A stretch of DNA of 63,069 nucleotides from Candidatus Omnitrophota bacterium (GTDB lineage: Bacteria; Omnitrophota; Gorgyraeia; Duberdicusellales; 4484-171): contig JAHISK010000098.1 of the NCBI GenBank assembly GCA_018818105.1, positions 1 through 63,069 of the forward strand, read 5' to 3'. How positions within the stretch are numbered: the stretch's first letter is position 1; each line of letters starts with the position of its first letter. Under the pieces are notes generated by a model. The model saw nothing but the letters and a program-made list of their open reading frames with translations. It made no database searches and had not been told where the DNA came from. The translations under genes and the position numbers were made by a program. This document shows positions 4,194-58,025 of this stretch, piece by piece.

Positions 4194-4269
4194 AGAAATT
4201 TTAAATTTACCAATTAGCATTTATGTAAGAGAAACAATATTTAGTAATTTAAAATGGTAAATGGTGAAT
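4194..4269. repeat. AAATTTACCA / TGGTAAATTT palindromic element, copy 1
   Basis: AGAAATTTTAAATTTACCAATT ... TTATGTAAGAGAAACAATATTTAGTAATTTAAAATGGTAAATGGTGAAT. Homologous to 58367-58510. Confidence 0.8.
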
Positions 4270-4287
4270 GGTGAATGGTGAATTTGA

Positions 4288-4764
4288 ATGAAAAATTATA
4301 AAGTTGGATTAGGGTTTGATGTTCATAAGTTTAGCAAGAAGAAAAAGGAGTTGGTGTTAGGCGGGGCGATAATACCTTTAGCAAGAGGGTTGGAAGCTGT
4401 TTCTGATGGAGATGTTCTTCTTCATGCTGTAACAGACGCTTTATGTGGGGCCGCCGGATTAGGTGATATCGGTGATTATTTTCCTCCTTCAAATAAAGAG
4501 TTGAAAGGTATTGATAGTAAAAAAATAGCAAAGTTCATTTTTAAAAAAATAGTAAATAGATTTGAAATCATAAATATGGATATAACGATTATTGCTGATA
4601 AACCGCCGTTAGTTTTTCATAAAAAGGAAATCATGAAATCGTTGATAAACATATTCTATATATCAGCGATTAATTTAAAGATAAAGTCTAAAGAAGGATT
4701 GAATGTTTTAGGGGGCAAAGACGCTATTTCGTGTTTAGCCATGGTGTTGGTGAAACAAATATGA
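4288..4764 (+). CDS. ispF: 2-C-methyl-D-erythritol 2,4-cyclodiphosphate synthase
   Basis: GLGFDVHKF, SDGDVLLHA and GDIGDYFP motifs. Confidence 0.92.
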   Translation: MKNYKVGLGFDVHKFSKKKKELVLGGAIIPLARGLEAVSDGDVLLHAVTDALCGAAGLGDIGDYFPPSNKELKGIDSKKIAKFIFKKIVNRFEIINMDITIIADKPPLVFHKKEIMKSLINIFYISAINLKIKSKEGLNVLGGKDAISCLAMVLVKQI

Positions 4765-4799
4765 ATAGCGTATGGCGGATAGCGTTTAGCGTATAGAGA
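4765..4799 (+). repeat. ATAGCGT heptad array (5 units)
   Basis: ATAGCGT ATGGCGG ATAGCGT TTAGCGT ATAGAGA. Confidence 0.85.
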
Positions 4800-4820
4800 A
4801 AAAAACGAAATAATATTATT

Positions 4821-6272
4821 ATGTTGAAAATATATAATACATTAACTAGAAAAAAAGAAGAGTTTAAACCACAAGATCCGAAAGAAGTAAAAATGTATAC
4901 TTGCGGGGTTACGGTTTATGACGATTGTCATATCGGCCATGGTCGGTCATTATATATCTTTGAGGTTATGCGTAAGTACTTGAATTATAAAGGAAAGAAA
5001 GAAGGATATAAAGTTAAATTTGTAAGAAATATTACTGATGTTGACGATAAAATAATTAATAAGGCGCGTCAGTTCGCCGCGGAAAAATCTTTAGTGTTAA
5101 GGGATGCTTTTAATGAGATTAGAACAACATATATAGATAGATATTACCAGGACTTGAAGTTGCTGCAAATACCGCCTGCCGATTCTGAGCCGCTAGCTAC
5201 AGAAAACATAGATGATATGATTAAGTTTATCAGCGTTTTGATTGAAAAAGGGTTTGCCTATGAGGCATTAGGTAATGTTTATTTTACGGTAAGAAGACTT
5301 AAGTCGTACGGTAAATTATCGGGGAAAAAGATTGATGATTTGTTTGAATCGGTAAGGATTGATTCCGACCCTCTAAAAAAAGATCCTCTTGATTTTGCTC
5401 TTTGGAAAACGGCGAAAAACGATGAACCTTATTGGGAAAGTCCCTGGGGACGGGGGCGGCCCGGATGGCATATTGAATGCTCAGTTATGAGCCTGAAATA
5501 CTTAAATACGGATACTTTAGATATTCATGGAGGAGGAAGAGATTTGATTTTCCCTCATCATGAAAACGAAGTTGCTCAAGCGCAAGCTAAGACACAGAAA
5601 CCGTTCGCGAATTATTGGATACATCACGGATTAATAACTATAAATAGTCAAAAAATGGCTAAATCGTTAGGGAATTTTGTGACTTTGGTAGAGGTGTTGG
5701 GGAAATATCCTGCTGATGTTTTGAAGCTGTTTTATTTGCAGGCGCAATATGCAAGTTCTATAGACTTTTCCTGGGAGAAGATGGAGGAAGCTAAAAAAGC
5801 GTATGAGCGTATTGATATTTTAATAAATAAAGTGGAACGGGAACTTGCTTGCGGTAATTCTAAATTAAACGCGAAAGAATATGATGACATAAAAGAAAAT
5901 AAAGATAAGTTCATTGAAGTTATGGATGATGATTTTAATATGCCCAAAGGTTTAGCTGTATTATTTGATATCGTTGCTCAGTGTAATAAACTAATGGAAA
6001 GCAGTGATGAAGAGAAAGTTTTGAAGTTGAGTTATGCTGTCGGAATAATAAGTGAATTGGCCGCGATATTTGGGTTAACTTTTCATAGGGATGGCAGTAT
6101 TGATGATATTTCCGATGAACAGATTAAGGAGTTCATTGAGCAAAGAAATCAGGCTAGAAAAGCAAAGAATTATGCTGAGTCCGATAAAATTCGGAAAGGA
6201 TTAGAAGAAAAGGGTGTCATTTTAGAGGATGAAAAGGAGAAAACTGTATGGCGAAGAAAAATAGGGAGTTAA
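4821..6272 (+). CDS. cysS: Cysteine--tRNA ligase
   Basis: HIGH (CHIGHGRS), KMSKS variant (KMAKSLGN), GWHIECS. Confidence 0.97.
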   Translation: MLKIYNTLTRKKEEFKPQDPKEVKMYTCGVTVYDDCHIGHGRSLYIFEVMRKYLNYKGKKEGYKVKFVRNITDVDDKIINKARQFAAEKSLVLRDAFNEIRTTYIDRYYQDLKLLQIPPADSEPLATENIDDMIKFISVLIEKGFAYEALGNVYFTVRRLKSYGKLSGKKIDDLFESVRIDSDPLKKDPLDFALWKTAKNDEPYWESPWGRGRPGWHIECSVMSLKYLNTDTLDIHGGGRDLIFPHHENEVAQAQAKTQKPFANYWIHHGLITINSQKMAKSLGNFVTLVEVLGKYPADVLKLFYLQAQYASSIDFSWEKMEEAKKAYERIDILINKVERELACGNSKLNAKEYDDIKENKDKFIEVMDDDFNMPKGLAVLFDIVAQCNKLMESSDEEKVLKLSYAVGIISELAAIFGLTFHRDGSIDDISDEQIKEFIEQRNQARKAKNYAESDKIRKGLEEKGVILEDEKEKTVWRRKIGS

Positions 6273-10389: not shown

Positions 10390-10513
10390 GTAGGGACGCC
10401 GCTTGTCTGCGCCCGATAGTTTTAATTCATAAATATGATTTGGCCTAATGATATGTTCATCCAATTGTTGATAATTTTATATTATTACGGGCGTAGACAA
10501 GCGACGCCCCTAC
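10390..10513 (-). mobile_element. MITE/BIME-like element, copy A (124 bp)
   Basis: 26-nt GC-rich inverted termini GTAGGGACGCCGCTTGTCTGCGCCCG / CGGGCGTAGACAAGCGACGCCCCTAC flank an AT-rich core. The core is the reverse complement of copies B and D. Confidence 0.85.
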
Positions 10514-21904: not shown

Positions 21905-23599
21905 ATGAATCAAGATTATCAAAAAAGTAAATTGATAGGAGAAATTCTACTTGCTGAAGGAGTAATTACTTCTAATCAGTTAGCTGACGCTTTAGAGTTT
22001 CAACAGAAAAACGGCGGTTTTTTTTGTTCTATTATCGTGAAAATGGGATTTTCTCAGCCTCAGGATGTGTTTAAGGTCTTAGCTGGACAGTTAGGCGTTG
22101 ATTATGTTGACCTAAAAAAAGAAAAGATTGAGCCTAAAGCTGTTTCCAAGGTGCCCGTTAAATTAGCCCTTCATTATGAAATGATGCCGTATAGGTTCGA
22201 TAAGCAAACGCTGGTCATAGCGTTATCAGACCCTTTAGATATTCATAAACTGGATGATTTAAAATTATTACTGGATATAGATATAAGGGCTGTTTTAAGT
22301 TATGAAAAAGACGTTTTAGAAACTATTCAGAAGTATTATGGTGTAGGCGCTGATATTTTGGAAGATATGATGAGCCAGTCGGACGTTGAAGATAAGATAA
22401 GAGTGAGAGCTTCCACTGTTGAGGATATAGAAACCGCGGTCGAAGACGCCTCCATTATTAAATTTGTGAATCATATTTTTACTCAAGGCATAGAAGAAAG
22501 AGCGACGGATATTCATTTAGAACCTTACGAAAACGAGTTAAGAGTTAGGTTTCGTATAGACGGTTTTTTATATGAAGTGCCTATCCCTGAATCTATAAAA
22601 CTGTTTCATCAGGCGATTGTTTCCCGCGTGAAAATCATGGCAGCGTTAGATATTGCCGAACATCGTCTTCCTCAGGACGGGCGTATAAAGATAAAAATAA
22701 AAGGAAGTGAATTGGATTTGCGTGTTTCAATCTTGCCGTCGGCGTATGGAGAGTCAGTTCAAGTAAGAATATTAAGTCCCGCGTCTTTTATGCGATTAGA
22801 TAATTTAGGCTTAATGAAAGATGATTTAAAGAAAATTGAAGGCCTGATAAATAAGCCTTATGGCATAGTTTTTGTTACTGGGCCTACGGGCAGCGGTAAA
22901 TCCACCACGCTTTACGCCGCCTTAAGTGAAAAAAATGTTGCCGGCAATAAGATTATCACGACCGAGGATCCTATAGAGTATCAGCTTAGGGGAATAACTC
23001 AGATTCAGGTTCTTCCTAAGATAGGGTTAACTTTCGCTGAAGGATTGCGCAGTATTTTAAGGCATGACCCTGACATCATAATGGTTGGTGAGGTAAGAGA
23101 CGCTGAGACTGCTGAGATAACTATTCGTTCGGCAATGACAGGGCATCTTGTTTTTTCCACGCTGCATACTAATGACGCGGCAAGCGCTCCTACGCGCCTT
23201 ATTGATATGGGTATTGAACCTTTTTTGGTGGCGTCGTCGCTAGAAGGCATCATTGCTCAGCGGTTAGTTCGAGTAATATGCTCTAAATGTAAGAAGAAAG
23301 TATCTGTTTCTACCGAAATTCTTAAGAAGTCCGGCATAGATTTAAAAGAAAAAAGTATAGAAGTTTTCGAAGGTAAAGGCTGTCAAAGTTGTCGCCAGAC
23401 AGGATTTAAGGGGAGAACCGCTATTTTTGAAGTGTTAATGATGACTGACGAGATTAGGGAATTAATATTTAAGCGGGTTACCAGTCAGGTTATTAAAGAA
23501 CAGGCGTTAATTCAAGGGATGCACACTTTAAGACAGGACGGTTTGAGGAAGGTTTTATCAGGAGTAACTACCTTAGGCGAAGTTATGAGAGTTACATAA
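21905..23599 (+). CDS. gspE: Type II secretion / type IV pilus assembly ATPase
   Basis: T2SSE_N-like N-terminus, Walker A GPTGSGKSTT, MVGEVRD, tetracysteine CSKC...CQSC. Confidence 0.93.
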   Translation: MNQDYQKSKLIGEILLAEGVITSNQLADALEFQQKNGGFFCSIIVKMGFSQPQDVFKVLAGQLGVDYVDLKKEKIEPKAVSKVPVKLALHYEMMPYRFDKQTLVIALSDPLDIHKLDDLKLLLDIDIRAVLSYEKDVLETIQKYYGVGADILEDMMSQSDVEDKIRVRASTVEDIETAVEDASIIKFVNHIFTQGIEERATDIHLEPYENELRVRFRIDGFLYEVPIPESIKLFHQAIVSRVKIMAALDIAEHRLPQDGRIKIKIKGSELDLRVSILPSAYGESVQVRILSPASFMRLDNLGLMKDDLKKIEGLINKPYGIVFVTGPTGSGKSTTLYAALSEKNVAGNKIITTEDPIEYQLRGITQIQVLPKIGLTFAEGLRSILRHDPDIIMVGEVRDAETAEITIRSAMTGHLVFSTLHTNDAASAPTRLIDMGIEPFLVASSLEGIIAQRLVRVICSKCKKKVSVSTEILKKSGIDLKEKSIEVFEGKGCQSCRQTGFKGRTAIFEVLMMTDEIRELIFKRVTSQVIKEQALIQGMHTLRQDGLRKVLSGVTTLGEVMRVT

Positions 23600-23600
23600 A

Positions 23601-23635
23601 TAGTATTTAGTCGTTAGTATATAGTATTTAGTGAA
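23601..23635 (+). repeat. TAGTNNN heptad array (5 units) after gspE
   Basis: TAGTATT TAGTCGT TAGTATA TAGTATT TAGTGAA. Same word as at 15913 and 40961. Confidence 0.85.
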
Positions 23636-23653
23636 GATAATTCCGAACTCAAT

Positions 23654-24844
23654 ATGTCTATATTTTTGTATAAAGCAAAGAAAGGGCCGTCTGAGATTGT
23701 CGAAGGCCAAATAGAAGCGCAGAGTAATCAGGAAGCGGTATCAAAACTAGACGCCTTAGACCTTTTTCCTCTAGTAATAAAAGAAAAAAAAGTTTCCTTT
23801 GGACGTAAATCAAAAGTCGCGTTAAAGGATTTAGTAGAATTTACCCATCAGCTTGCTACTTTAATTAATTCGGGATCAACGCTTATATCAAGTCTTAGTA
23901 CGTTAGCGTCTGCGACTGATCAGTCAAATCTTAAACCAGTAGTTTTAGATGTAATTGCTCAAGTTAAAGAAGGTGTGCATTTTTCTCAGGCGTTGGAGAA
24001 ATATCCTTATATTTTTTCTCAATTATACATTTCTTTAGTTAAGACCGGTGAAGCTTCCGGTACTTTAGGGCAAAACTTATCACGTATCGCTCAGTTTTTA
24101 GAAGAAGAATTAGATTTCTACACTAACATAATTTCAATTTTAACTTACCCTTTTATAATCGTTGGAGTGGGAATATTGACTATTTTTGCTTTACTGAAAT
24201 TTGTTATTCCGAAATTAGTGGGTATTTTTGATGATATTGGCCAGGCGCTTCCTTTACCGACATTAATATTAAAAAATATTTCTGATGTGTTTTCACGGTA
24301 TTGGATTATTATCTTAGGCGCAGGTATTCTTTGCGTCTTTATTGTAAAGAGGTATTTTCTAATTCCTAAAAATAGGATCTGGTGGGATGAAGTTAAATTG
24401 AAGATGCCGTTGGTAGGCGTGTTGCTTAAGAAAATTGAAATAGCGAGGTTTTCCAGAACATTATCGATTCTTCTTAAAAACGGGGTTACTATTGATTCAT
24501 CGTTGAGGGTTGTTACAAAAACTATTTCGAATGTTTTTTTTCAACGCCAGGTAGAACGGGTAGAAAAACAAATTAAAGAAGGGATGTCTTTAAATGAGGC
24601 ATTGAAGTCAATTAATGTTTTCCCGGCTACTTTTATCAATGTTGTTACAGTCGGCGAGGAGTCAGGTTCTTTAGATAATGTTTTAGAGAACTTATCCGTT
24701 GATTACAATAAAGAAATTCACCGGAAAATGAAAGCGGTGTTAGGTATTTTAGAGCCTATGCTGATTTTAGGCGTGGGCGTAATAGTGGGATTTGTTGTTT
24801 TAGCGATGCTGTTGCCTATTTTTCAGATAGATTTTAATTTTTGA
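23654..24844 (+). CDS. gspF: Type II secretion platform protein
   Basis: Two GspF/PilC repeats separated by TM helices. Directly downstream of gspE. Confidence 0.9.
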   Translation: MSIFLYKAKKGPSEIVEGQIEAQSNQEAVSKLDALDLFPLVIKEKKVSFGRKSKVALKDLVEFTHQLATLINSGSTLISSLSTLASATDQSNLKPVVLDVIAQVKEGVHFSQALEKYPYIFSQLYISLVKTGEASGTLGQNLSRIAQFLEEELDFYTNIISILTYPFIIVGVGILTIFALLKFVIPKLVGIFDDIGQALPLPTLILKNISDVFSRYWIIILGAGILCVFIVKRYFLIPKNRIWWDEVKLKMPLVGVLLKKIEIARFSRTLSILLKNGVTIDSSLRVVTKTISNVFFQRQVERVEKQIKEGMSLNEALKSINVFPATFINVVTVGEESGSLDNVLENLSVDYNKEIHRKMKAVLGILEPMLILGVGVIVGFVVLAMLLPIFQIDFNF

Positions 24845-24872
24845 GAGCGTTGATATGTGTTTGCAGTGCGTT

Positions 24873-25020
24873 AAGAATCAAAAACGAATTTTTTCGGGAA
24901 CGCAAAAATTCCCTGCGAGAATTTTTACTGGCGCTTCACCCTTAAAAATCCTTCCTTTCAGGAAGGATACCATGCTTTTAAAGGTTCAGAGCCTCCCTCT
25001 TAAAATTGTTTTTGATTCTT
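24873..25020. other. 148-nt nested-hairpin element in the gspF-gspG spacer (structured leader or MITE)
   Basis: Outer IR AAGAATCAAAAACGAATTTT / AAAATTGTTTTTGATTCTT. Inner CCTTAAAA-ATCCTTCC-TTTC-AGGAAGGAT-ACCATGC-TTTTAAAGG. Confidence 0.6.
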
Positions 25021-25131
25021 TCCATAATTTGTAAACTTTAATCGTTGAAAGTATACATGATAATTTTTTTAAATTTTTAGAATAAAGTTAAGAGTTTAAT
25101 AATATGCGTGGGTAGAGAGGAGGAATTGAAA

Positions 25132-25521
25132 ATGAAAAAGGGGTTTACTTTAATTGAATTAATGTTGGTTGTAATTATTATTGGTATTTTAGCCGGTGTA
25201 GTTGCTCCACGATTAGCTGGTCGGGCCGAAAAAGCTAAGCAGGAAGTTGCTCGGGCGGCTGTTACGGCAAGTCTTCCCGCGGCAATAGACCTTTATGAGT
25301 TAGACGTTGGCAGTTATCCTCAAAGTTTAGATGATTTAGCGACTCAGCCTTCAGACGCCCAAAGTTGGGATGGTCCATATTTAAAAAAAGCGGCGCGTGA
25401 TCCATGGGGAAGAGATTATCATTATAGTTATCCTTCAGAACACGGCGGTGATTTTGATGTTGCTTCAGAGGGTCGTGATGGTATTTTAGGAAGTGAGGAT
25501 GACATTGTTAGTTGGGAGTAG
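25132..25521 (+). CDS. gspG: Major pseudopilin GspG
   Basis: Prepilin leader MKKG/FTLIELM with Glu+5. GspG-like C-terminus DGPYL...DPWGRDYHY. GAGGAGG RBS before ATG 25132 (track start 25108). Confidence 0.9.
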   Translation: MKKGFTLIELMLVVIIIGILAGVVAPRLAGRAEKAKQEVARAAVTASLPAAIDLYELDVGSYPQSLDDLATQPSDAQSWDGPYLKKAARDPWGRDYHYSYPSEHGGDFDVASEGRDGILGSEDDIVSWE

Positions 25522-25529
25522 TAGAGAAA

Positions 25530-25551
25530 GGGTCAAGGGTCAAGGGTCAAG
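25530..25551 (+). repeat. GGGTCAA heptad array (3 units)
   Basis: GGGTCAA x3, followed 14 nt later by a GTAG hairpin. Confidence 0.9.
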
Positions 25552-25565
25552 AAAATTTAAAATAT

Positions 25566-25591
25566 GTAGGGGAGGGTTTGTAACCCTCCCG
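25566..25591 (+). repeat. GTAG-headed hairpin
   Basis: GTAGGGGAGGGTTTGTAACCCTCCCG, identical to 47727-47752. Confidence 0.85.
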
Positions 25592-25641
25592 TTATAAAGA
25601 TTATGGGGGGGTATTGCGTTCCGCGATACGATATAAAGAGA

Positions 25642-26088
25642 ATGTATCGTTTTAAAAAGAGAAGAGGATTTACGTTAATAGAATTGCTTCTGGTTATCAC
25701 GATTATTTCTGTTTTAGCAGGAGTTAGTTTTCCTTTCATAAAAAATACTATTCAATCTACGCGGTTTAAATCTTTTTCCAATAAAACGTATCTGTTTTTA
25801 GATTACGCTAAAACACAAGCTATTCTTAGAAGTATAGTTTTAAAAGTTAGAATAGATTTAGATAACGCGATAATGGTTATAATAGAAACAGATGATGAGC
25901 TGGTAGAGTCGGTTGTGTATAAAATCAATATTCCTGAGAAAGTAAGTATAGAATCAGAAAACGAAGAAATCTTTTTCTATCCCGACGGAACACTGCAGCC
26001 GATTCAAATAACAATTTCTGATGATAAAGGACGAAGCATCTTGGTTACGAGTAAGGGAATAGATGGAAAAATTGTGACAGGGCAATAA
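25642..26088 (+). CDS. gspH: Minor pseudopilin (GspH-like)
   Basis: MYRFKKRRG/FTLIELLLV prepilin signal. Track start is 25603. Confidence 0.6.
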   Translation: MYRFKKRRGFTLIELLLVITIISVLAGVSFPFIKNTIQSTRFKSFSNKTYLFLDYAKTQAILRSIVLKVRIDLDNAIMVIIETDDELVESVVYKINIPEKVSIESENEEIFFYPDGTLQPIQITISDDKGRSILVTSKGIDGKIVTGQ

Positions 26089-26101
26089 ATAATATGATAT
26101 A

Positions 26102-26122
26102 TGTAGGGGCCGACCCCCTACA
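26102..26122. repeat. Palindromic GTAG hairpin
   Basis: TGTAGGGG-CCGAC-CCCCTACA. Confidence 0.8.
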
Positions 26123-26145
26123 ATATTTGTAATTCTATTTGAAAA

Positions 26146-26520
26146 ATGAAATCTAATAAAGGAATATTACTGTTTGAAGTCGCGTTTGTTGTTCTTTTGG
26201 TATCTATCATTTCGCTGTTTTTATTTAGAGGGTTTGGTGTTTTTTTAAAAGCGGGAAGAAAGAGCCTAGATTATCTTAAGTTGAGCAGCTTGGTAGAGGA
26301 AAAATTTTGGGATTTAGAAATGATTGAGGCAAAAGATGGATTTTTGTCTAAGGATGTAGCGTCGAGGGGTGAGTTTGAGCGGATACCTTTTAAATGGAAT
26401 ATGAATCTTGTGACGGTTGACGATAGTAGTTTGAATAAATGTATTTTAAAAATAGAACGCCAGGGTAATCGAAAATTATCTTTAGACGCGATTATCTTTG
26501 TATCGGTGAAAGAGGAATGA
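26146..26520 (+). CDS. Minor pseudopilin (GspI-like, degenerate leader)
   Basis: MKSNKG/ILLFEV with Glu+5, hydrophobic helix, small size, operon position. Confidence 0.45.
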   Translation: MKSNKGILLFEVAFVVLLVSIISLFLFRGFGVFLKAGRKSLDYLKLSSLVEEKFWDLEMIEAKDGFLSKDVASRGEFERIPFKWNMNLVTVDDSSLNKCILKIERQGNRKLSLDAIIFVSVKEE

Positions 26521-27089
26521 AGAAAGGATTAACTTTAATTGAGGTAATGGTGGCGGCGCTGATTTTTTCATTTATATCAGTTGCCTTATACATGTTGTTG
26601 AGTACAGGGATATCTGTGCGTAAAAAGGTAGAGGCAAAACAGGGAACCTATCAGACCATTAATTTAAATCTGGAAAACATTGCTCTTTCGTTGCGTAACG
26701 TTGTGTTTTTTAGTAATGTTAGTGCTGGATTTAACGGCACTATAGAAGATGATATTCCAAGGTTAGAGTTTTATACGCAGAATTTTGATTACGCGCGGGG
26801 GTATCCTAAAGTTTCACTGGTTAAGTATAGGTTTGAAAGTGGTTTTTTGTATAAGGAAATTAAAAGTCCTTTTGATGAAAATGAAGAAACAACCGAGGTG
26901 GGAATCATTGATGATTTAGAGAATTTTGAAATATTTTATTCTGACACGCAAGGCACAGAAACTAAAACGTGGCAGGATGTTACACAAATACCCAAAGGTG
27001 TAAGGATTAGTTTAGAGTATAAAGATGAAAAGGGACAGTCCCAATTCATGAAAAAACATGTTTTAATATACAGGGATAATGAGCTGTAG
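26517..27089 (+). CDS. Minor pseudopilin (GspJ-like)
   Basis: MKKG/LTLIEVMVAAL. 4-nt overlap with the preceding ORF. The TAG stop lies inside the TIR of a MITE-like element. Confidence 0.55.
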   Translation: MKKGLTLIEVMVAALIFSFISVALYMLLSTGISVRKKVEAKQGTYQTINLNLENIALSLRNVVFFSNVSAGFNGTIEDDIPRLEFYTQNFDYARGYPKVSLVKYRFESGFLYKEIKSPFDENEETTEVGIIDDLENFEIFYSDTQGTETKTWQDVTQIPKGVRISLEYKDEKGQSQFMKKHVLIYRDNEL

Positions 27090-27211
27090 GGGCGCCGCTT
27101 GTCTACGCCCGTAATAATATAAAATTATCAATGATTAAATGAATATATCATTATGCCGAATTATATTAATTGTATAATTAATAATCGGGCGCAGACAAGC
27201 GACGCCCCTAC
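27086..27211 (+). mobile_element. MITE/BIME-like element, copy B (126 bp)
   Basis: Same termini and core (TAATAATATAAAATTAT...AATTAATAAT). Lies inside the T2SS operon and provides the TAG stop of the gspJ-like gene. Confidence 0.85.
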
Positions 27212-27232
27212 GATATTTTTATATTTACTATT

Positions 27233-28147
27233 ATGCGAAAAGGGTTTTTTCTTGTTTTTTCTTTAGGGATATTGGTCGTGCTTTCTTTATTTTGTCTGGG
27301 ATTGGGGTTTCGTACCTATATTCAAACCCGTAAAACTAAGTTCTACCTAAACAAACAGCGCGCTTTTTATTTAGCTGTTTCCGGGGTTAAAATTGCTCAG
27401 CAAATGTTAGAGCAGGATATGCAAAAAGATAAAGAAGCAGATACGTATGTTGACCACTTAGGTGAGGATTGGTCCCAGCCGATAGAAAAAGAAGTTGCCT
27501 TTTCTTATCCCGGAAAGACAGGCAAAATATCAGTAGAAATTGAAGATGAAACCAGCCGGATTAATATAAATACTATGCAGATAAAGATGTTGAAGAAGCT
27601 GTTAACTGAAAAAGAGGTAGAAAATCCTAATAATAAGGCCGACTATATTATTGATTATATTGACGCTAATACTGATACTCAAGCGGGAGAACCAGAGGTT
27701 GAAGGTAGGTATAAGAACGCGGCGTTGAGTGTTTTATCGGAGTTATTATTAATAGAGGACATATCTGTTGACGATTATAATAAAATTAAATATTTTGTTA
27801 GTGTTGTTGGCGATGGAAAGGTTAATATAAATACAGTATTGAGAGAAACACTGGACTTTTTGATAGAATGCTTTTTTACTGGTAAAACAGAAATAGTAAA
27901 TAAATTGTTTGGTCAACCCGATGGAGAGAGGGGATATTATTCCGCGCTAGATTGGCAGAATGTTATGAGTGAAGAAATTAGTAGTGACCCCGATCCTGTT
28001 TTGTATATTAAAGATATATTTTGTATTAATTCTAAGTATTATCGTATAACAAGCGAAGGTGAAGTAGACGGGGTTAAGAAAAAAATCATTTGTGTGTTGA
28101 ATAGGGAGGCAGAAAGCGGTAAAATTTTATATTGGCATGAAAATTAA
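27233..28147 (+). CDS. gspK: Minor pseudopilin GspK-like
   Basis: Leader without Glu+5 (MRKGFFLVFSL) and IEDETSRININT, typical of GspK. Confidence 0.65.
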   Translation: MRKGFFLVFSLGILVVLSLFCLGLGFRTYIQTRKTKFYLNKQRAFYLAVSGVKIAQQMLEQDMQKDKEADTYVDHLGEDWSQPIEKEVAFSYPGKTGKISVEIEDETSRININTMQIKMLKKLLTEKEVENPNNKADYIIDYIDANTDTQAGEPEVEGRYKNAALSVLSELLLIEDISVDDYNKIKYFVSVVGDGKVNINTVLRETLDFLIECFFTGKTEIVNKLFGQPDGERGYYSALDWQNVMSEEISSDPDPVLYIKDIFCINSKYYRITSEGEVDGVKKKIICVLNREAESGKILYWHEN

Positions 28148-28207
28148 ATCACGAAACCCACTTACCACCTACGAGGTGGAAAGTGGTTTAGGTAGAGGAT
28201 AGATAGT

Positions 28208-29590
28208 ATGGGAGCTAAAAAGATAGTAATTTTAGAGATACAGGATAAGTCTATAAAAGGGTACTGTACTGTTTCCGGTAAGAAAAAATGTAAGATAGAG
28301 GCATTAGATAGTTCCTGCTATCCGCATCAAGTATCAGCTCAGGATATATCTGATTTTTTTAAGAAGCTTATAAATAAGTTTAAGTATGATAAAGTTATCA
28401 TTTCGTTTACCCGCCGGTTTTTTCTTATCCGCTTTCTTTCGCTGCCTTCTCAGAATTGGAGTGAAGTAAGAAGGATGTTGCCGTTTCAAATGGCTAAAGG
28501 CATTATTCAGCCGTTAGAAGATGTTGTTTATGATTATTCTCTAGCGGTTAGCGAAAAAGGTCATTCCAAAATGCTTATATATATTACTCAAAAAAAGAAA
28601 ATTTCTAATGTGTTAGAGTTTATCGAAGCAGGTAAGGTATTGCCTTTTAGCATTACGAACAGTAGCTGGGGCTTATATCAGTGGTATATGTTTAGGAGCG
28701 GTTTTTTTAAACAAAAGCCGATAGGATCAAATGCGGTTATTGATGTTGGCAGTAATGATTCTGAGTTTTTAATTGCTAGCGAAGACGGTATCCTTTTTTC
28801 ACGGTCATTTCATTGTTTAAGTGATGATGATTTGCTGGAAGGGATAAACCAGTCGTTAAGGATATTTGAGAAAGAATATGGGGCTAGAAGTTTTAATAAG
28901 GCAATCTTTACGGGGGTTCGAAAGGATAAGGTTATCGAATCAATTACTTGGGCCCAATGTGTTTTCCTCGATCAGCTGGATAATTTCTTTTTCAGTAAAG
29001 GGGTTAGAGAAAAAATAAATGACAGTGGAACTTCTTTTGCTTCCGGGTTGGGGTTAGCTGTTACTAAAAACTATGGGTTTGACTTTTCTCCGCCAGTTTT
29101 AAAAGAGCGAAAACAAAGTTTAAAGAAAAGAAAGAGAAATGTTCAGCTTGTTATTTTAGTTGTAGAAATTATGGTTATTTTAAGTCTATTTTTTGGGAAG
29201 TATGTATTTAACCGGTATGTTTATCTGGACTTTCTGAATTCTAAATTACAAAAGGTAAATATTGAGGTGAAAGAATTAGGGACGGTAACTGAGAAACTAA
29301 AGGTTCTTGATAAAGAGTTGGATAAATCGGTAAGTTTTTCGCGAGTGCTTTATAATGTTGTTTCGTCAGTTCCTTTGAACGTGCAATTATCTTTGGTCGA
29401 TTTTAGGGAGAAAGGCGATTTTTCTATTAAGGGGTATGCCCAGAATAATGAGGATGTATTCGCTATAAAAAAATTGTTGGGAGAGTCAGGTTTATTTAGC
29501 AGTGTAGGCGTAAAATATGTTGCTAAAGTAAAAGGGCGTAAGGGGCAAGAGGGGTTTGAGTTTTACATGGAAGGTAAAGTTATACAATGA
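28208..29590 (+). CDS. GspL-like assembly protein (PilM-like actin-fold N-domain + TM + PilN-like C-domain)
   Basis: Cytoplasmic N-domain, single TM helix (LVILVVEIMVILSLFF), coiled periplasmic part, operon position. Confidence 0.5.
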   Translation: MGAKKIVILEIQDKSIKGYCTVSGKKKCKIEALDSSCYPHQVSAQDISDFFKKLINKFKYDKVIISFTRRFFLIRFLSLPSQNWSEVRRMLPFQMAKGIIQPLEDVVYDYSLAVSEKGHSKMLIYITQKKKISNVLEFIEAGKVLPFSITNSSWGLYQWYMFRSGFFKQKPIGSNAVIDVGSNDSEFLIASEDGILFSRSFHCLSDDDLLEGINQSLRIFEKEYGARSFNKAIFTGVRKDKVIESITWAQCVFLDQLDNFFFSKGVREKINDSGTSFASGLGLAVTKNYGFDFSPPVLKERKQSLKKRKRNVQLVILVVEIMVILSLFFGKYVFNRYVYLDFLNSKLQKVNIEVKELGTVTEKLKVLDKELDKSVSFSRVLYNVVSSVPLNVQLSLVDFREKGDFSIKGYAQNNEDVFAIKKLLGESGLFSSVGVKYVAKVKGRKGQEGFEFYMEGKVIQ

Positions 29591-30117
29591 AAAAAAGGCG
29601 TCTTTCAAAACGGGAAAAACTAATTATAAGTATTACCCTAGGGATTTTTATTGGTAGTTTGGCCGTTAATGGGGTTATGCTAGGGCGTAATCGATTAATT
29701 TCTTTGAATCAGGAGATTGCTAATAAATCCTCTCTTTTGCGCCGGCATTTTCTTTTGGTAGAAAGAGGAGGGGATATTCGGTCAGTATATGAGAGTTATA
29801 AAAAAATTCTTGAAATAGAAGGTAGCGGGCAGGAATTAGACGCTGATTTATTTAATGAAGTAAAAAGGTTAACCGAGAAACTTAATTTGTCTATTGATAG
29901 GATTAAACCGTTGCCGGTAGAATCTAAAGCTAATTACGCTCAAGTTTTATTAGAAGTGGAGATAGGGGGCGATTTTAAGTCTATTTTTGAGTTTATTAAT
30001 GGGTTGGAAAATTCGCCGTCTTTTATTAGAGTTTTAAATCTACGCCTATATCCTCAGTCAGGAAGTTCCGCGCCATTACGTTGTAAATGTCTCATTTCGA
30101 GGTTATTTTTTTCATAA
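29587..30117 (+). CDS. GspM/PilO-like assembly protein
   Basis: N-terminal TM helix, C-terminal GDFKSIFEFINGLENSPSFIRVLNLRL. 4-nt overlap with the preceding ORF. Confidence 0.55.
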   Translation: MKKRRLSKREKLIISITLGIFIGSLAVNGVMLGRNRLISLNQEIANKSSLLRRHFLLVERGGDIRSVYESYKKILEIEGSGQELDADLFNEVKRLTEKLNLSIDRIKPLPVESKANYAQVLLEVEIGGDFKSIFEFINGLENSPSFIRVLNLRLYPQSGSSAPLRCKCLISRLFFS

Positions 30118-30262
30118 TACTTATAACGCGAAGGGGATAGTAAAAGAAATCTATTGATTCAATGTATATATTCTATTAAAATGAATATATAAATATATGT
30201 ACCTTAAAAATAAGTAGTTCTTTTAGAAGAAATAAGTTAATTTTTTTAATTTAGTTGGAGCG

Positions 30263-30787
30263 ATGGCGGTAGTAACGAAAAGTTTATCCAAAGATTCCTT
30301 AGCAGTTGGTAGTGTTATACTTAGCTTGTCAGTAAAGCTTTTTTTTGTGGGAGTTGTTTTTTCTTTAGCTTTTGTAATTCACTCTGTTTTATTGAAAGAA
30401 GCGAAATTTCTTAAAAAAGAAAGTGTGCAAGGGATTTCTGCTGTGTTGGAAAAAGTGCCGTCGGTTATTGACCGCGAACGGCAGGATTATTCGCAGTTTC
30501 TGCGGCAGATTCAAAGTAGAGATATTTTTACTGCTGTTGTCGTGGAAAAGGGAGTTTCTGCTTCTGGTGCCCAACTAGATAAAATTAAGAAGATTATTGA
30601 AGGATTAAGATTAGTGGGGATAAAATCAGGAGCGGTGTCTAAAGTGATAATTGAAGATACTGGCGCCGGTAAAACTTCTTATTTGAAAGAGGGTGATAGC
30701 TTTTCCGAAGGTATTGTGGTAGAAGCGATTGGGAAAGATTCGGTTATACTAAACGGTGGGGGGGAAAGTTTTGAGTTGTATCTTTAG
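30263..30787 (+). CDS. GspC/PilP-like secretin-interacting protein
   Basis: TM helix, then a beta-rich C-domain LRLVGIKSG...KEGDSFSEGIVVEAIGKDSVIL. Confidence 0.45.
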   Translation: MAVVTKSLSKDSLAVGSVILSLSVKLFFVGVVFSLAFVIHSVLLKEAKFLKKESVQGISAVLEKVPSVIDRERQDYSQFLRQIQSRDIFTAVVVEKGVSASGAQLDKIKKIIEGLRLVGIKSGAVSKVIIEDTGAGKTSYLKEGDSFSEGIVVEAIGKDSVILNGGGESFELYL

Positions 30788-32765
30788 AAAGGGTCAAGGA
30801 AGAATTGTCTTCCAAATAATAATTGTCTGTTTTTTTCTGCTAGGATTAGTGCTTCCTCTAGGAGGTCTAGTTGCTGGGCAGCAGGTGTCGAGTCAATCCA
30901 TAAGCAGTTTCGCTAAAATTTCATTAGATGTTAAGGGGATGGATATTATTGATGTGTTAAAGATTTTGTCTGATGAAGGAGGGTTTAATCTTTCTATCGG
31001 AGGAAATGTCAGTGGGCGGGTAACATTGTTTTTAAAAGATATCGATGTCTGGGATGCTTTAGAAATTGTTTTGGTTTCCGGTAACCTCGCGTATGAGAAA
31101 AAGGGTCAAATTATTTATATAATGACTGAACGCGATTATGAGTTGAAGAATGGTGAAAAGTATTGGGATAAACGTAAAGTTGAAATTTTTAATTTAAAAT
31201 ACGCCCAGGCTGGCAGAGTTAAGGAATTATTGGCTCAAGTTGCTTCCAATATAGGTAAGGTTATAATGGATGCGCCTACCAATACCGTGGTTGTTACTGA
31301 TACTTCCGAAAAATTAAACCAAATGAGGGAACTTGTTAAAAAAATAGATACAGCGTTAGATACGCAAGTTTTTGAATTGAACTATTTAGCTGCTGAAGAC
31401 TTGAGTCAAAAACTGACAGATGTTTTAACTTCTGAAGTTGGGAATGTAAGGTTTGATGTGGCTAGTAATAAAGTAGTTATTACCGATTATCCTGATAAAA
31501 TGGCAGAAATAAGAAATGTGATAAAGGCTTTTGATGTAAAGCCGCTGCAGGTATTAATTGACGCTAAAATTATAGAATTAAATCCGTCTAAAAACTTTTA
31601 TGCGGGAATTAACTGGGAATATTGGATACAAAAGTATTTTAAAACTACGGGCACGTTCAATTTTCCTTATACAACTACTACGGATAAAGTGACTTTTTCT
31701 TCTCACGATACGATAACTACTTCAGCTCCGGGAGATTACAGCGCGATAATAGATTTTCTAAGCACATTCGGAAATACCAAAGTGCTTTCGACCCCCAGGA
31801 TATTAGTTTTAAATAATCAGGAAGCAAAGATATTGGTGGGAACAAAAGAGGCATATATTACTTCGACAACATCAGAGGTAGGGGATACAGCGGTAACTTC
31901 TCAATCGGTTAATTTTGTTGACGTCGGTGTAAAACTTTATGTTACGCCTACAATAAATAGAGACGGCTACGTTACTTTAAAAATAAGGCCGGAAATTAGT
32001 TCTGCGGAAAGCTCTCAGATTACCAGTGAAGATCAGAAGACAGATATTCCTATAGTAACGACGTCTGAAGCAGAAACGACGATGATTGTTAAAGAAGGAG
32101 TAAGTGTTCTTTTGGGAGGATTGCGTAAAATTACCCATGATAAACAGCATAAGCAAATTCCTATTTTAGGCAATATCCCAATTATCGGAAATATCTTTAA
32201 AAGCAGTAAGGATGAGTGGACTAAAGATGAATTAGTTATTGTGTTGACGCCTAGGATTGTATCGGGAGACCGGTCAATAGAAGAAGAAATTCATGATAAA
32301 TTAGCAGGAGAAATATGGGAAAAAGAAGCTATTTCTGAATTTGAGAAAGAAGAAAAAAATATGCCTAAGCAGTTGAGAGAGATGGATGCGGATACATCTA
32401 AGATAGTTAAGAAAGAAATAAGAGTTGATGGTTCGCGAGAAGTTAATATAAGTAAAAAGGTAAGCTCGCGAGATAGGCTGTTGTCTGAAGGAGAAACAAA
32501 AGTTAAGTTGAGTAAGGATGGAATAGAAGATTTAAATAGGCAGTTGAGTGAGTTAGATGATAAGTTGCGTCGAATCACGCGGGAAGAAGCAATTATTGAA
32601 CTCAAAATAGATGAGGCTAGTGTTGATTTCTCGCAAAATATAGATGTCCAGAGTCAGGGCATAGAAGATGAAATGGTAGCGCGTCAAGGTTTTATAGAAG
32701 AAGCTCCACTTTCGGTGTCTGAGGGTGAAGCCCAGGTAAAAAAAAAGCCCCAAGCAGTGAAATAG
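30756..32765 (+). CDS. gspD: Secretin (GspD/PilQ family) with long charged C-terminal extension
   Basis: N0/N1-like domains, secretin core STPRILVLNNQEAKILVG ... IPILGNIPIIGNIFKS, about 150 aa of E/K-rich tail. Ends 19 nt after the A9 tract. Confidence 0.9.
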   Translation: MGGKVLSCIFRKGQGRIVFQIIIVCFFLLGLVLPLGGLVAGQQVSSQSISSFAKISLDVKGMDIIDVLKILSDEGGFNLSIGGNVSGRVTLFLKDIDVWDALEIVLVSGNLAYEKKGQIIYIMTERDYELKNGEKYWDKRKVEIFNLKYAQAGRVKELLAQVASNIGKVIMDAPTNTVVVTDTSEKLNQMRELVKKIDTALDTQVFELNYLAAEDLSQKLTDVLTSEVGNVRFDVASNKVVITDYPDKMAEIRNVIKAFDVKPLQVLIDAKIIELNPSKNFYAGINWEYWIQKYFKTTGTFNFPYTTTTDKVTFSSHDTITTSAPGDYSAIIDFLSTFGNTKVLSTPRILVLNNQEAKILVGTKEAYITSTTSEVGDTAVTSQSVNFVDVGVKLYVTPTINRDGYVTLKIRPEISSAESSQITSEDQKTDIPIVTTSEAETTMIVKEGVSVLLGGLRKITHDKQHKQIPILGNIPIIGNIFKSSKDEWTKDELVIVLTPRIVSGDRSIEEEIHDKLAGEIWEKEAISEFEKEEKNMPKQLREMDADTSKIVKKEIRVDGSREVNISKKVSSRDRLLSEGETKVKLSKDGIEDLNRQLSELDDKLRRITREEAIIELKIDEASVDFSQNIDVQSQGIEDEMVARQGFIEEAPLSVSEGEAQVKKKPQAVK

Positions 32766-32815
32766 ACCCCGGTGTCTATCAGTATTATCTGCAAATAGTT
32801 GAAAAAATAAAAGAT

Positions 32816-33067
32816 ATGTCTTTATCTGTAACTTCTGGATGGATGGGGATATCAAAATCTAAGACAGAAGGTAGAAAGGTAACGTTGCAGTTTGTTCTTT
32901 CCCGTAAGGGGGATTTAATTGGTGATCCAAAGATTATTTCTCCGCAAGGTGATGATGTAGTAGAGGGTGTTGCTAAAGATATAATAAGAAAATCTTCTCC
33001 GTTCCTGCCGTTTCCTGAAACCAAAGAAGCAGAAAATGAAACTTACGAAATCTCCCTATATTTCTAA
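32816..33067 (+). CDS. TonB_C/TolA_C-like domain; the frame is open from 32729 with no start codon before 32816
   Basis: GRKVTLQFVLSRKGDLIGDPKIISPQGDDVVEGVAKDIIRKSSPFLPFPE. The upstream in-frame codons (YQYYLQIVEKIKD) also belong to the domain. Probably the -1 frame continuation of gspD. Confidence 0.55.
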   Translation: MSLSVTSGWMGISKSKTEGRKVTLQFVLSRKGDLIGDPKIISPQGDDVVEGVAKDIIRKSSPFLPFPETKEAENETYEISLYF

Positions 33068-33116: not shown

Positions 33117-33240
33117 GTAGGGGCGCCGTTTGTCTACGCCCGTAAAATATTAAATTAAATGAATCTATACCCTAATATCAAATAATATTCATGACATTAT
33201 TGTTATCAATAAACGGGCGCAGGCAAGCGGCGGCCCCTAC
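33117..33240 (+). mobile_element. MITE/BIME-like element, copy C (124 bp, diverged core)
   Basis: Same termini. Lies between the convergent TonB_C-like ORF and lptG. Confidence 0.8.
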
Positions 33241-51316: not shown

Positions 51317-53197
51317 ATGATAAACATAACCAACCTTTCCAAAAGTCATGGCGCGCGGGTTCTTCTTGATAATATTTCTTTGCAAATAAATCGAGGGGAA
51401 AAGATAGGGCTTATCGGTCCTAATGGAGCGGGTAAGTCTACGCTTTTTTTTTTAATCCTAGGTAAAACTGAAAGCTCCGGGGGAAATATTCAGATTATTA
51501 AAAATATCCGTATTGGGTATCTTGCTCAAGAATCAAGTTTTGCCTCTGATCGTACGGTTTTGTTAGAAGTAATTGAAGGGGATGAAGAGATTGTCCAACT
51601 TAAGAAGGAAAAGGATTCCTTAGAAGAAAAACATCAAACAGAGTCTAATCGTTACGGAGATGTTCTTCATAAGTTAGAGGTTCTGGAATATTTCCAATTA
51701 GAGTATAAGGCCAAGAAAATTTTAAGCGGGTTAGGTTTTAAAGTGAGCGATTTTAGTCGGCCGATAAACGAGCTTAGCGGCGGATGGCAGATGAGGGTGT
51801 TATTGGCTAAACTGCTTACTTATCATTATGACGTTTTGCTCTTGGATGAGCCGACAAACTATCTTGACTTAAATGCCGCTATTTGGTTTAAAAATTATTT
51901 AGCTAAGTTTGAAGGGACGTTTGTGCTGATTTCTCATGACCGCTCGTTTTTAGATGAGGTTGCTAAGTATACGTTGGTTTTAGAAGGTGGCGTGGTCGTT
52001 AAAGTGAAAGGTAACTACCAGCAGTATCTTAAAATAAGAGAAGAGCAACGTGTTCATGCCATAAAACATTTTAAAGAACAGGAGAAGAAAAAAGATCAGC
52101 TTAAGCAGTTTGTCAGCCGGTTTCACGCTCAACCTAATAAAGCCGCTCAAGTTCGTTCTAAACGCAGATTTTTAGAAAGGATGGAAGAAGTAACTGTCCC
52201 CGAAGATCGCCGTGAGAGTATAAGAAAATTCCATTTTCCCGCGACTAAACAGAGCGGTTGGCGGGTGATGACGTTAGATAAAATATCCAAGTCTTATGGA
52301 GATATTAAAGTCTATAAAGATTTTGATTTTGAAATAGAAAAAGATGAAAAGGCGGTGTTAGTGGGAGATAACGGCGCGGGTAAGTCTACCCTTCTTAAGA
52401 TTCTGGCGGGAGTGGTAGATATAGACAGCGGCAGCCGGCGCGTTGGTCATAACGTTGATGTGGGTTATTTTTCTCAAACACGGATGGATGTGTTAATGCC
52501 GTATAATACGGTTTTAGAAGAAGCTTACGCAGTCGCGGGGTCTAATATGACGACAGAAAGTTTGAGGACAATTTTAGGGGCGTTTTTGTTTCGTGGAGAT
52601 GATGTTGAGAAGCGCGTGAAGGTTTTATCAGGGGGGGAGAAGAGTCGTCTTATCCTAGCGAAGCTATTGATCAATCCGCCTAACTTTCTTCTTCTTGATG
52701 AGCCGACAACGCATCTTGATGTGGACGCGGTAGAGGCGTTAATTAAGGCATTAAAAGAATTCCAAGGAACGCTTGTTTTTATTAGCCACGATATACATTT
52801 TGTCCGCTCTGTGGCTAATACTGTTTATGAAGTTAAGGGTGGAGTAAGGAAATTTCCTGGTACTTTTGATTATTATTTTGATAAAAAAGATACAGAACCT
52901 CGAGTTATGAAAGAACACAAGCTCGCAAAATCAAAAGAAGATAAAAAGGAGGATGTCAAACCTCTTTCTAAAGAAGATAAAGAAAATTATAATGATGAAG
53001 TTGCCGCTAAAATAAGGAAGTTAAGAGCAAGAATAGAAAAATTAAAAAACGAAAAGTATGCTACCGCGAGAGTGCTATCTAATCCAAGGCATAGTAGAGA
53101 GACAGTTAAAGAGTATGAAAAGAAGCTTGAAAAGCTGGATAATAAGGTAAAGACAACAGAGAATAAAATTAAGGAATTAAAAGATAGGTTTGTGTGA
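51317..53197 (+). CDS. ABC-F family ATPase
   Basis: Two ABC cassettes (GPNGAGKST, GDNGAGKST; LSGGWQ, LSGGEK), no TM domain, K/E-rich coiled C-terminus. Start is MINITNLSK. Confidence 0.9.
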   Translation: MINITNLSKSHGARVLLDNISLQINRGEKIGLIGPNGAGKSTLFFLILGKTESSGGNIQIIKNIRIGYLAQESSFASDRTVLLEVIEGDEEIVQLKKEKDSLEEKHQTESNRYGDVLHKLEVLEYFQLEYKAKKILSGLGFKVSDFSRPINELSGGWQMRVLLAKLLTYHYDVLLLDEPTNYLDLNAAIWFKNYLAKFEGTFVLISHDRSFLDEVAKYTLVLEGGVVVKVKGNYQQYLKIREEQRVHAIKHFKEQEKKKDQLKQFVSRFHAQPNKAAQVRSKRRFLERMEEVTVPEDRRESIRKFHFPATKQSGWRVMTLDKISKSYGDIKVYKDFDFEIEKDEKAVLVGDNGAGKSTLLKILAGVVDIDSGSRRVGHNVDVGYFSQTRMDVLMPYNTVLEEAYAVAGSNMTTESLRTILGAFLFRGDDVEKRVKVLSGGEKSRLILAKLLINPPNFLLLDEPTTHLDVDAVEALIKALKEFQGTLVFISHDIHFVRSVANTVYEVKGGVRKFPGTFDYYFDKKDTEPRVMKEHKLAKSKEDKKEDVKPLSKEDKENYNDEVAAKIRKLRARIEKLKNEKYATARVLSNPRHSRETVKEYEKKLEKLDNKVKTTENKIKELKDRFV

Positions 53198-53207
53198 TAT
53201 GCTAGTT

Positions 53208-53331
53208 GTAGGGGGCGTCGCTTGCCTACGCCCGTAATAATATAAAATTATTAACAATTGGTTGAATATCCTTATGACGAATCATATTCATAGTAAATTA
53301 ATAATCGGGCGCAGGCAAGCGACGCCCCTAC
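53208..53331 (+). mobile_element. MITE/BIME-like element, copy D (124 bp)
   Basis: Same termini, and the core is collinear with copy B. Confidence 0.85.
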
Positions 53332-57893: not shown

Positions 57894-58025
57894 GTAGGGG
57901 CGTCGCTTGCCTGCGCCCGATTATTAATTATAAATATATCATGAATATAATTTGGCATAATGGTATATTCAACCATATATTAATAATTTTATATTATTAC
58001 GGGCGTAGGCAAGCGACGCCCCTAC
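57894..58025 (-). mobile_element. MITE/BIME-like element, copy E (132 bp)
   Basis: Same termini, with the core in the orientation of copy A. Lies between divergent genes. Confidence 0.85.

Follow-up and report, generated by a model that had tools for sequence, protein, structure and literature searches.

The 63,069-nt contig JAHISK010000098.1 of a Candidatus Omnitrophota bacterium (NCBI GenBank assembly GCA_018818105.1; hereafter the window, whose positions serve as coordinates throughout and whose G+C content is 36%) carries a secretin gene that stops shortly after a run of nine adenines (A9), and beyond this run a domain resembling the C-terminal domain (CTD) of TonB and TolA continues in the -1 frame. 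We consider the best explanation of this arrangement, with somewhat more confidence than doubt, to be programmed recoding at the tract, by RNA-polymerase slippage or by -1 ribosomal frameshifting, which would yield a short and a long isoform of the secretin. The argument draws on the homologues of the gene, most of which bear the domain in frame, and on a second Omnitrophota genome in which the same split is found at an identical tract. The features in question are the following.

30756-32765, + strand: secretin open reading frame (ORF), zero frame, 669 aa from the GTG at 30756
32268-32737, + strand: glutamate/lysine (E/K)-rich linker of ~155 residues, joining the secretin core to the A-tract
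32721-32727, + strand: Shine-Dalgarno (SD)-like GAGGGTG, 13 nt upstream of the heptamer
32738-32746, + strand: A9 homopolymer, run length exactly nine
32741-32747, + strand: heptamer A_AAA_AAG in the zero frame, candidate -1 ribosomal slip site
32747-33067, + strand: -1-frame segment with the TonB/TolA C-terminal-like domain, 106 aa plus the stop at 33065-33067
32763-32765, + strand: zero-frame stop TAG, five sense codons past the heptamer
32816-32818, + strand: sole ATG of the -1 frame, opening an 83-aa ORF at residue 24 of the 106-aa segment

A preliminary description of this DNA, made from its letters without database searches, had proposed that the secretin continues through the tract into a domain lacking a start codon of its own, and every sequence statement in it held on rechecking. 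The secretin ORF ends GTA AAA AAA AAG CCC CAA GCA GTG AAA TAG, so that the C-terminus of the short isoform is predicted to read ...VKKKPQAVK. A TGA at 32726-32728 closes the -1 frame, in which no further stop occurs from 32729 onwards until the TAA at 33065-33067. Codon readout confirmed that the heptamer lies in the zero frame, and the domain does begin upstream of the only ATG: the 29 codons at 32729-32815 contain no ATG, GTG or TTG, and none of the motifs GGAG, GAGG and AGGA, which we looked for, is present in the 25 nt before the ATG. A single extra A in the tract, whether it is present in the DNA or only in the mRNA, brings the two frames together in a 770-aa protein. According to our estimate from base composition, a 106-codon frame would be open by chance at 36% G+C with a probability of roughly 5e-4. 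Because this probability is low and the frame is conserved as protein in another species, chance is a poor explanation of the open -1 frame.

The zero-frame product is a member of the secretin (GspD/PilQ) family, as indicated by Pfam matches above the gathering scores for Secretin (PF00263, 153.9 bits, cut-off 27.5) and Secretin_N (PF03958, 91.9 bits, cut-off 28.2) and by its position in a type II secretion system (T2SS)/type IV pilus (T4P)-like operon. Its N-terminus has a signal-like hydrophobic segment followed by the Secretin_N domains, and the Secretin domain occupies residues 335-502. Other gene callers place the start later, giving proteins of 638-664 aa.

To analyse the homologues we used as query the hypothetical 770-aa fusion, that is, the product of an A10 tract or of a -1 shift, and our counts refer to the best 120 homologues. 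In 98 of them the domain is present in frame and ends within ~2 residues of the C-terminus; several (P0007, P0009, and P0016) align with 96-97% of the query. The best homologues bear Omnitrophota names wherever their source names them, and the closest named ones are from Candidatus Omnitrophota. The domain alignment opens with a conserved helix, YYLxIVEKIK, and a profile search of the domain against 1.84 billion cluster representatives gave 1450 proteins at E<=1e-3, including many with lengths of 500-850 aa, among which are some secretin fusions that the homologue search had also returned. Because 98 of the 120 homologues are fused in frame, the secretin ORF and the 83-aa ORF are, judging from these sequences, one gene. 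The continuation of the secretin into a domain without its own start, as first proposed, is thus supported by the fusions, by the helix that lies upstream of the ATG, and by the second genome described below. The preliminary description had also been aware of no described secretin with a C-terminal TonB_C domain; in fact the databases already hold the fusion, for some members of which (e.g. P0010 and P0118) the NCBI name is “TonB C-terminal domain-containing protein”, although our full-text literature searches found no paper describing a secretin-TonB_C architecture.

The in-frame Omnitrophota fusions (P0010, P0118, P0005-P0009, and P0016) share with the window gene the position in the operon, namely pilM/N-pilO-pilP-secretin followed by lptF/lptG on the opposite strand, as well as the order of domains (Secretin_N, Secretin, charged linker, TonB_C-like) and the motifs YYLxIVEKIK ... 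SPFPPFP ... TFEIxLxF. They differ in being encoded in a single frame, whereas in the window and in the second genome the last domain lies in the -1 frame behind the A9. Annotation pipelines at present render the window gene as a truncated “GspD” and a separate small orphan ORF, which is probably wrong.

The assignment of the domain to the TonB/TolA type was first made from its sequence pattern. The window domain by itself scores below the Pfam gathering thresholds, with 19.5-19.7 bits for TonB_C (gathering score 24.6) and 19.0-19.2 bits for TonB_2 (gathering score 22), but the profile matches of its orthologues and the predicted fold agree with the assignment: each of the 14 orthologous domains in the alignment matches TonB_2 (E<=0.01, best 4e-8), and 10 of these also match TonB_C. 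A search of PDB sequences with the domain profile reached HasB and TonB only at E 0.03-0.06. The AlphaFold2 model obtained from the orthologue alignment (predicted local distance difference test, pLDDT, 84.9; predicted template modelling score, pTM, 0.75) comprises helix 8-31, strands 44-52 and 57-65, helix 70-83, and strand 97-105. Its top Foldseek match in the PDB is the TonB-CTD of H. pylori (6sly, E 5e-4, template modelling score 0.64), and the further best matches are TolA domain III (TolA-CTD), FusB, and HasB. The predicted alpha-beta-beta-alpha-beta order is the same as that of TonB/TolA CTDs, with an N-terminal helix as in the long TonB-CTD construct, and the model indicates that the domain has the TonB/TolA CTD fold.

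The position of the ATG at 32816 relative to this fold bears on how the domain is made. The TonB_2 match of the window domain starts at residues 12-18, upstream of the ATG, which falls inside predicted helix 1 (residues 8-31). A product begun there would lack most of this helix, including the YYLxIVEKIK motif with its invariant Tyr. In addition, neither stand-alone ORF product, of 83 aa in the window and of 97 aa in the second genome, has a signal peptide in its sequence, so a domain made on its own would remain in the cytoplasm, away from the secretin.

The domain is TonB-like and is not a TonB. In contrast to TonB proper, it has neither an N-terminal membrane anchor nor a Pro-rich spacer and follows a secretin and an E/K-rich linker; no ExbB/ExbD or TolQ/TolR gene is present among the gene calls adjoining the secretin, for which no dedicated search was made. 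The C-terminus of secretins faces the periplasm near the outer membrane, and because the domain would hang from the C-terminus of such an outer-membrane protein, it could not transduce inner-membrane energy as TonB does. TonB and TolA domains dock onto their partners by beta-strand augmentation. By analogy, our guesses for a domain of this type on a charged linker are binding of, or anchoring to, peptidoglycan, or docking by beta-strand augmentation.

Among the best 120 homologues, 22 lack the domain, and only two secretins end just after VKKK: that of the window and that of CP070797.1 (P0004), a closed Omnitrophota genome of 1.5 Mb. The two secretins share 64% of their protein sequence. The end of its gene reads CCA GAG GTA AAA AAA AAG TCT CCT CCA CGA AAG TAA. 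The A9, the zero-frame heptamer, and the frame offset all agree with those of the window, and a TAA stop comes five codons on. A TonB_C-like domain follows in the -1 frame (VYDYYLQLVEKIKD...TYEIMLTF). Aligned as DNA, the two genomes share the 14-mer AGGTAAAAAAAAAG letter for letter, while the surrounding linker has diverged, with indels and an identity of 41%. Comparison of orthologues, which the preliminary description had suggested, has therefore revealed both kinds of gene that it had in mind: in-frame fusions, which are common, and the identical slippery site, in CP070797.

We made a codon-based comparison between the window and CP070797 to obtain ratios of nonsynonymous to synonymous substitution (dN/dS). 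The values were 0.09 for the secretin core, 0.22 for the linker, and 0.16-0.21 for the TonB_C-like domain read in the -1 frame, at synonymous differences near saturation (pS 0.65-0.73). The -1-frame domain is free of stops in both lineages, and the ratios indicate that it is under purifying selection in both. A selected domain behind an identical tract is, as far as these sequences tell, what one expects of a recoding or contingency site that is being maintained, and not of a random inactivating frameshift.

The in-frame relatives differ from the two split genes at this very place. In P0007 (L005) and P0009 (L019), a homologous Lys-run, GGG AAG AAA AAA AAG AAA, lies at the same distance from the YYL helix as the A9 of the window; it is an A8 interrupted by G and is in frame, and when compared with these two genes the uninterrupted A9 is confined to the two split ones. 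The Lys-run of the relatives also holds A_AAA_AAG in the zero frame. Speculatively, slippage by -1 at this heptamer would end the protein a few codons on, giving the same pair of isoforms with the default and the slipped product swapped.

According to the recoding explanation, the gene would deliberately keep its two parts in frames 0 and -1, which meet at GTA AAA AAA AAG. Standard decoding would give the short secretin, stopping six codons past the tract, and a fraction of expression events would cross to the -1 frame, with the 770-aa secretin-TonB_C protein as their product. This could occur by either of two routes. In the first, RNA polymerase would slip on the A9 template and produce an A10 mRNA, as in dnaX of Thermus thermophilus and mxiE of Shigella; in the second, the ribosome would slip by -1 on A_AAA_AAG, as in dnaX of E. 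coli. Both would lead to one and the same junction, ...AQVKKK-APSSEID.... The TonB-like domain would reach the periplasm only as part of the secretin, which is the bearer of the signal peptide, and the ratio of long to short subunits would set the number of TonB-like domains in each secretin multimer.

Each route has its own support. For frameshifting of the dnaX type, we find the heptamer in the zero frame, a -1 ORF that has no start up to residue 24, and conservation of both site and frame in CP070797. For transcriptional slippage, the A9 is uninterrupted in the window, in a second assembly of the strain, and in CP070797, and an A10 restores the 770-aa ORF. Transcriptional slippage needs no stimulator. 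A run of nine A or T is the threshold of efficient transcriptional slippage in bacteria, and such runs are selected against in many of them (PMC1088944). The dnaX gene of T. thermophilus slips at an A9, and two ORFs of Shigella mxiE become one when a single nucleotide is inserted at a T-run (PMC1088944). Programmed slippage at A9/T9 runs is also documented for spa13, mxiA, and spa33 of Shigella flexneri (PMC1088944; reference list of PMC3711429).

Several observations weigh against programmed recoding, some of them against its ribosomal variant in particular. The SD-like GAGGGTG, which the preliminary description had reported upstream of the heptamer, is indeed present in the window, but the DNA alignment shows no counterpart in CP070797, and it is probably not a dedicated stimulator, to judge from the alignment. 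Structures predicted downstream are weak and are not shared by the window and CP070797 (z -2.0 and -0.6), and an Rfam scan gave no frameshift element, only sub-threshold microRNA (miRNA)-like matches on a neighbouring hairpin. As neither GAGGGTG nor a downstream stem-loop is conserved, a dnaX-like ribosomal mechanism is no better supported than slippage of RNA polymerase. The arrangement is, moreover, known from two lineages only, and searches of proteins, genome contigs, and metagenome contigs found no further close relatives that have it. The genome-contig scan with the fused protein returned CP070797 again and nothing else; the metagenome-contig scan with a four-sequence alignment of the domain gave seven loci, all of them distant (31-42% identity) and outside the close clade; and word-indexed protein searches with the domain or its profile found almost only the window ORF, which reflects how little sensitive the index is and does not speak for an absence of homologues. 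In CP070797, a GTG stands in the -1 frame at the very start of the domain, 12 nt past the secretin stop, which makes independent initiation or re-initiation possible there. Part of the nucleotide identity of the tract may also be less surprising given a conserved VKKK and the bias of an A+T-rich genome towards AAA codons. Finally, the closest relative of the window secretin (P0003; L004, Logan SRR22388255_87359 4851-4862), with 69% identity, has lost the domain wholly, its stop being followed after 10 nt by a convergent lptF/G gene. The clade can therefore do without the domain, and a mutational hot spot combined with relaxed selection could give the same picture.

With regard to mechanism, since the split genes keep an uninterrupted A9 and the in-frame relatives have an interrupted A8, we lean slightly towards transcriptional slippage, and both mechanisms may contribute. 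A scan for tRNA genes, made because tRNA-Lys bears on how slippery AAG is, found none in the window.

Short matches from the profile search that had been candidates for further split genes were rejected: in P0149 (L007), insertion of a Y1-transposase-like ORF has interrupted the domain, and P0137 and P0263 are incomplete because their contigs end there. Of the homologues that lack the domain, P0015 is a secretin without TonB_C whose gene order differs, and P0027 ends after KKK, but no TonB_C is present downstream in any frame. Two loci have peculiarities of their own. At L007, on a related metagenome contig (JGI Ga0212121_10049843, 516-989 and 600-700), the TonB_C-like gene is truncated, and the ORF upstream of the remnant, which resembles a Y1 (IS200/RAYT-like) transposase, contains repeated GTAGGGGCTGGGCTTGCCCC units that resemble the arms of a palindromic element of the window described further on; the enzyme, to go by this likeness, may mobilise the palindromic repeat family of the window. 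At L016 (JGI Ga0366835_1002869, ~4250-5000), downstream of a secretin without TonB_C, an 830-nt gap between gene calls is filled by a repetitive array whose three-frame translations repeat motifs such as LRTPDYGL.

The main rival to programmed recoding is phase variation at the level of DNA, in which the tract, as a contingency locus, would gain or lose length at replication by slipped-strand mispairing, the population would toggle reversibly between A10 (fusion, ON) and A9 (short secretin, OFF), and both genomes would have been caught at A9. We regard it as possible, at a low probability. A long homopolymer in a surface or secretion gene is the classical setting of phase variation (PMC3711429, PMC1088944). 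The predominance of in-frame fusions in the family and the dispensability of the domain in P0003 also fit it, and selection on the downstream frame fits it as well as it fits recoding. However, every copy that we have seen, in the consensus assemblies of the window strain and in CP070797, is A9 and none is A10, and two species that have diverged to synonymous saturation would have to share the OFF state as well as the run length. These objections carry little weight, since an assembly shows the majority allele and no other.

Less probable is a sequencing or assembly artefact, in which one or both genomes would really have A10 and an ordinary in-frame secretin-TonB_C fusion; we think this unlikely. 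Errors are frequent in homopolymers, CP070797, being a closed metagenome-assembled genome, was probably built from long reads, and an A10 would restore exactly the common fused architecture. Against these points, the name of the window contig, k141_1502180 (ENA ERZ27247128), suggests a short-read assembly by MEGAHIT, and a second assembly (NCBI JBDRNH010000151.1), with one base different in 5.7 kb (99.98% identical), also has A9. The NCBI, JGI/IMG, and Logan/ENA records of the strain all call the truncated secretin, although the assemblies possibly go back to a common sample. A T10 tract on the same contig, at 51444-51453, reads through in frame within an ABC-F ATPase gene, which indicates that the assembly renders a 10-nt homopolymer correctly. 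All seven neighbouring genes of CP070797 that we compared, over a 10-kb stretch that includes A8 tracts, align in a single frame to window proteins. An artefact would thus need the identical error at the identical site in two independent projects. The T10 tract is an observation in its own right, since it lies directly after the Walker A motif (GPNGAGKSTLFFLILG), and a slippage-prone run of such length is unusual in a conserved gene. Taking together the T10 control, the second assembly, and the CP070797 neighbours, the homopolymer undercall is the least likely of the three explanations offered in the preliminary description; recoding is favoured, and phase variation is retained behind it.

Decay of the domain is more doubtful still. 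It would require an inactivating frameshift at a mutational hot spot, independent and recent in each lineage, leaving a remnant that is not made and that is heading for deletion as in P0003. The absence of the domain from this closest relative, its interruption by the transposase insertion at L007, and the homologues that lack it (22 of the 120) are all compatible with decay, but the downstream frame is intact in both lineages with a dN/dS of ~0.2, tract length and frame offset are identical in the two species, and two independent, recent, and identical events would be needed.

Least probable of all is a split gene whose TonB_C-like domain is translated separately by re-initiation or coupling, from the GTG in CP070797 and from the ATG at 32816 or a non-canonical start here: NCBI does annotate a 97-aa “TonB C-terminal domain-containing protein” at the CP070797 GTG, but the window has GTC at the corresponding codon and no start before residue 24, a start at the ATG would cost the conserved helix, neither an upstream SD-like motif nor a signal peptide is present, and the other short matches, when traced to their DNA, are not stand-alone genes (two start where their contig ends, and the third is interrupted by a transposase insertion). 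A promoter scan gave no plus-strand promoter ahead of the 83-aa ORF. A crude survey found an SD-like motif before the first start codon in 14 of 41 long ORFs; it is too noisy and we do not use it as an argument.

Programmed recoding, the explanation we prefer, would act on the last gene of a type II secretion/type IV pilus-like operon, whose upstream part (21905-30787, + strand) comprises the following genes, with N_methyl as a further Pfam match.

21905-23599, + strand: GspE-like ATPase (Pfam T2SSE)
23654-24844, + strand: GspF (Pfam T2SSF)
25108-25521, + strand: GspG pseudopilin (Pfam T2SSG)
25603-27089, + strand: minor pseudopilins (Pfam T2SSJ)
27233-28147, + strand: GspK-like (Pfam T2SSK_1st)
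28208-29590, + strand: PilM/N-like (Pfam PilN)
29587-30117, + strand: PilO-like (PilO match in the gene calls of the contig)
30263-30787, + strand: PilP/T2SSB-like (T2SSB match in the gene calls of the contig)

Downstream of the secretin, genes of the lptF/lptG permease family are convergent, on the other strand. The window also contains a dispersed G+C-rich palindromic element, at 10390-10513, 27086-27211, 33117-33236, 53316-53331, and 57894-58025, with arms of the form GTAGGGGCG[CT]CG[CT]TTG and hairpins of ~125 nt with an A+T-rich loop; eight arm matches occur in the window against 0.14 expected by chance. One copy immediately follows the TonB_C-like ORF on its 3' side, in the space between the convergent genes, and another separates the gspJ-like from the gspK-like gene. 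The element looks like a repetitive extragenic palindromic (REP) sequence or a miniature inverted-repeat transposable element (MITE), and the sub-threshold miRNA-like Rfam matches near the -1-frame ORF arise because its hairpin adjoins.

When the window gene is set beside the known systems, T. thermophilus dnaX and Shigella mxiE likewise have an uninterrupted nine-A run in a coding region, and mxiE likewise joins two overlapping ORFs, by one additional non-templated nucleotide, to encode a longer protein. The Shigella cases are also components of a secretion apparatus (PMC1088944; PMC3711429). What differs is that the present gene encodes a T2SS/T4P-type secretin, belongs to Omnitrophota, and has a tract that also contains a ribosomal slip heptamer. 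With E. coli dnaX it shares the identical A_AAA_AAG in the zero frame and the prospect of two isoforms that differ by a C-terminal domain. In E. coli dnaX, however, the frameshift leads to the shorter product, whereas here it would lead to the longer one, and that gene has an upstream SD and a downstream stem-loop, whereas the SD-like motif of the window is not conserved and no conserved downstream hairpin is present.

A known recoding mechanism would here appear in a new gene family, as suggested by two lineages. To our knowledge, no recoding event has previously been described in a secretin gene, few cases of programmed frameshifting or transcriptional slippage are documented in cellular genes, and there is almost no experimental genetics for Omnitrophota. 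We give about even chances to the broader proposal that, in some Omnitrophota, T2SS/T4P secretin genes use a recoding site to produce a fixed mix of bare subunits and subunits bearing a TonB/TolA-like domain. If true, this would be a case of recoding beyond mobile elements and dnaX, in a structural part of a secretion or pilus machine, where recoding would tune the number of TonB/TolA-like domains that decorate each outer-membrane channel. It would also point to a functional role for the undescribed secretin-TonB_C architecture, and relatives might reach the same two-isoform outcome through different genetic arrangements, as happens among dnaX genes. More generally, most secretins of this family bear a C-terminal TonB/TolA-like domain on a long charged linker, which suggests a pilotin-free way of anchoring or docking secretins.

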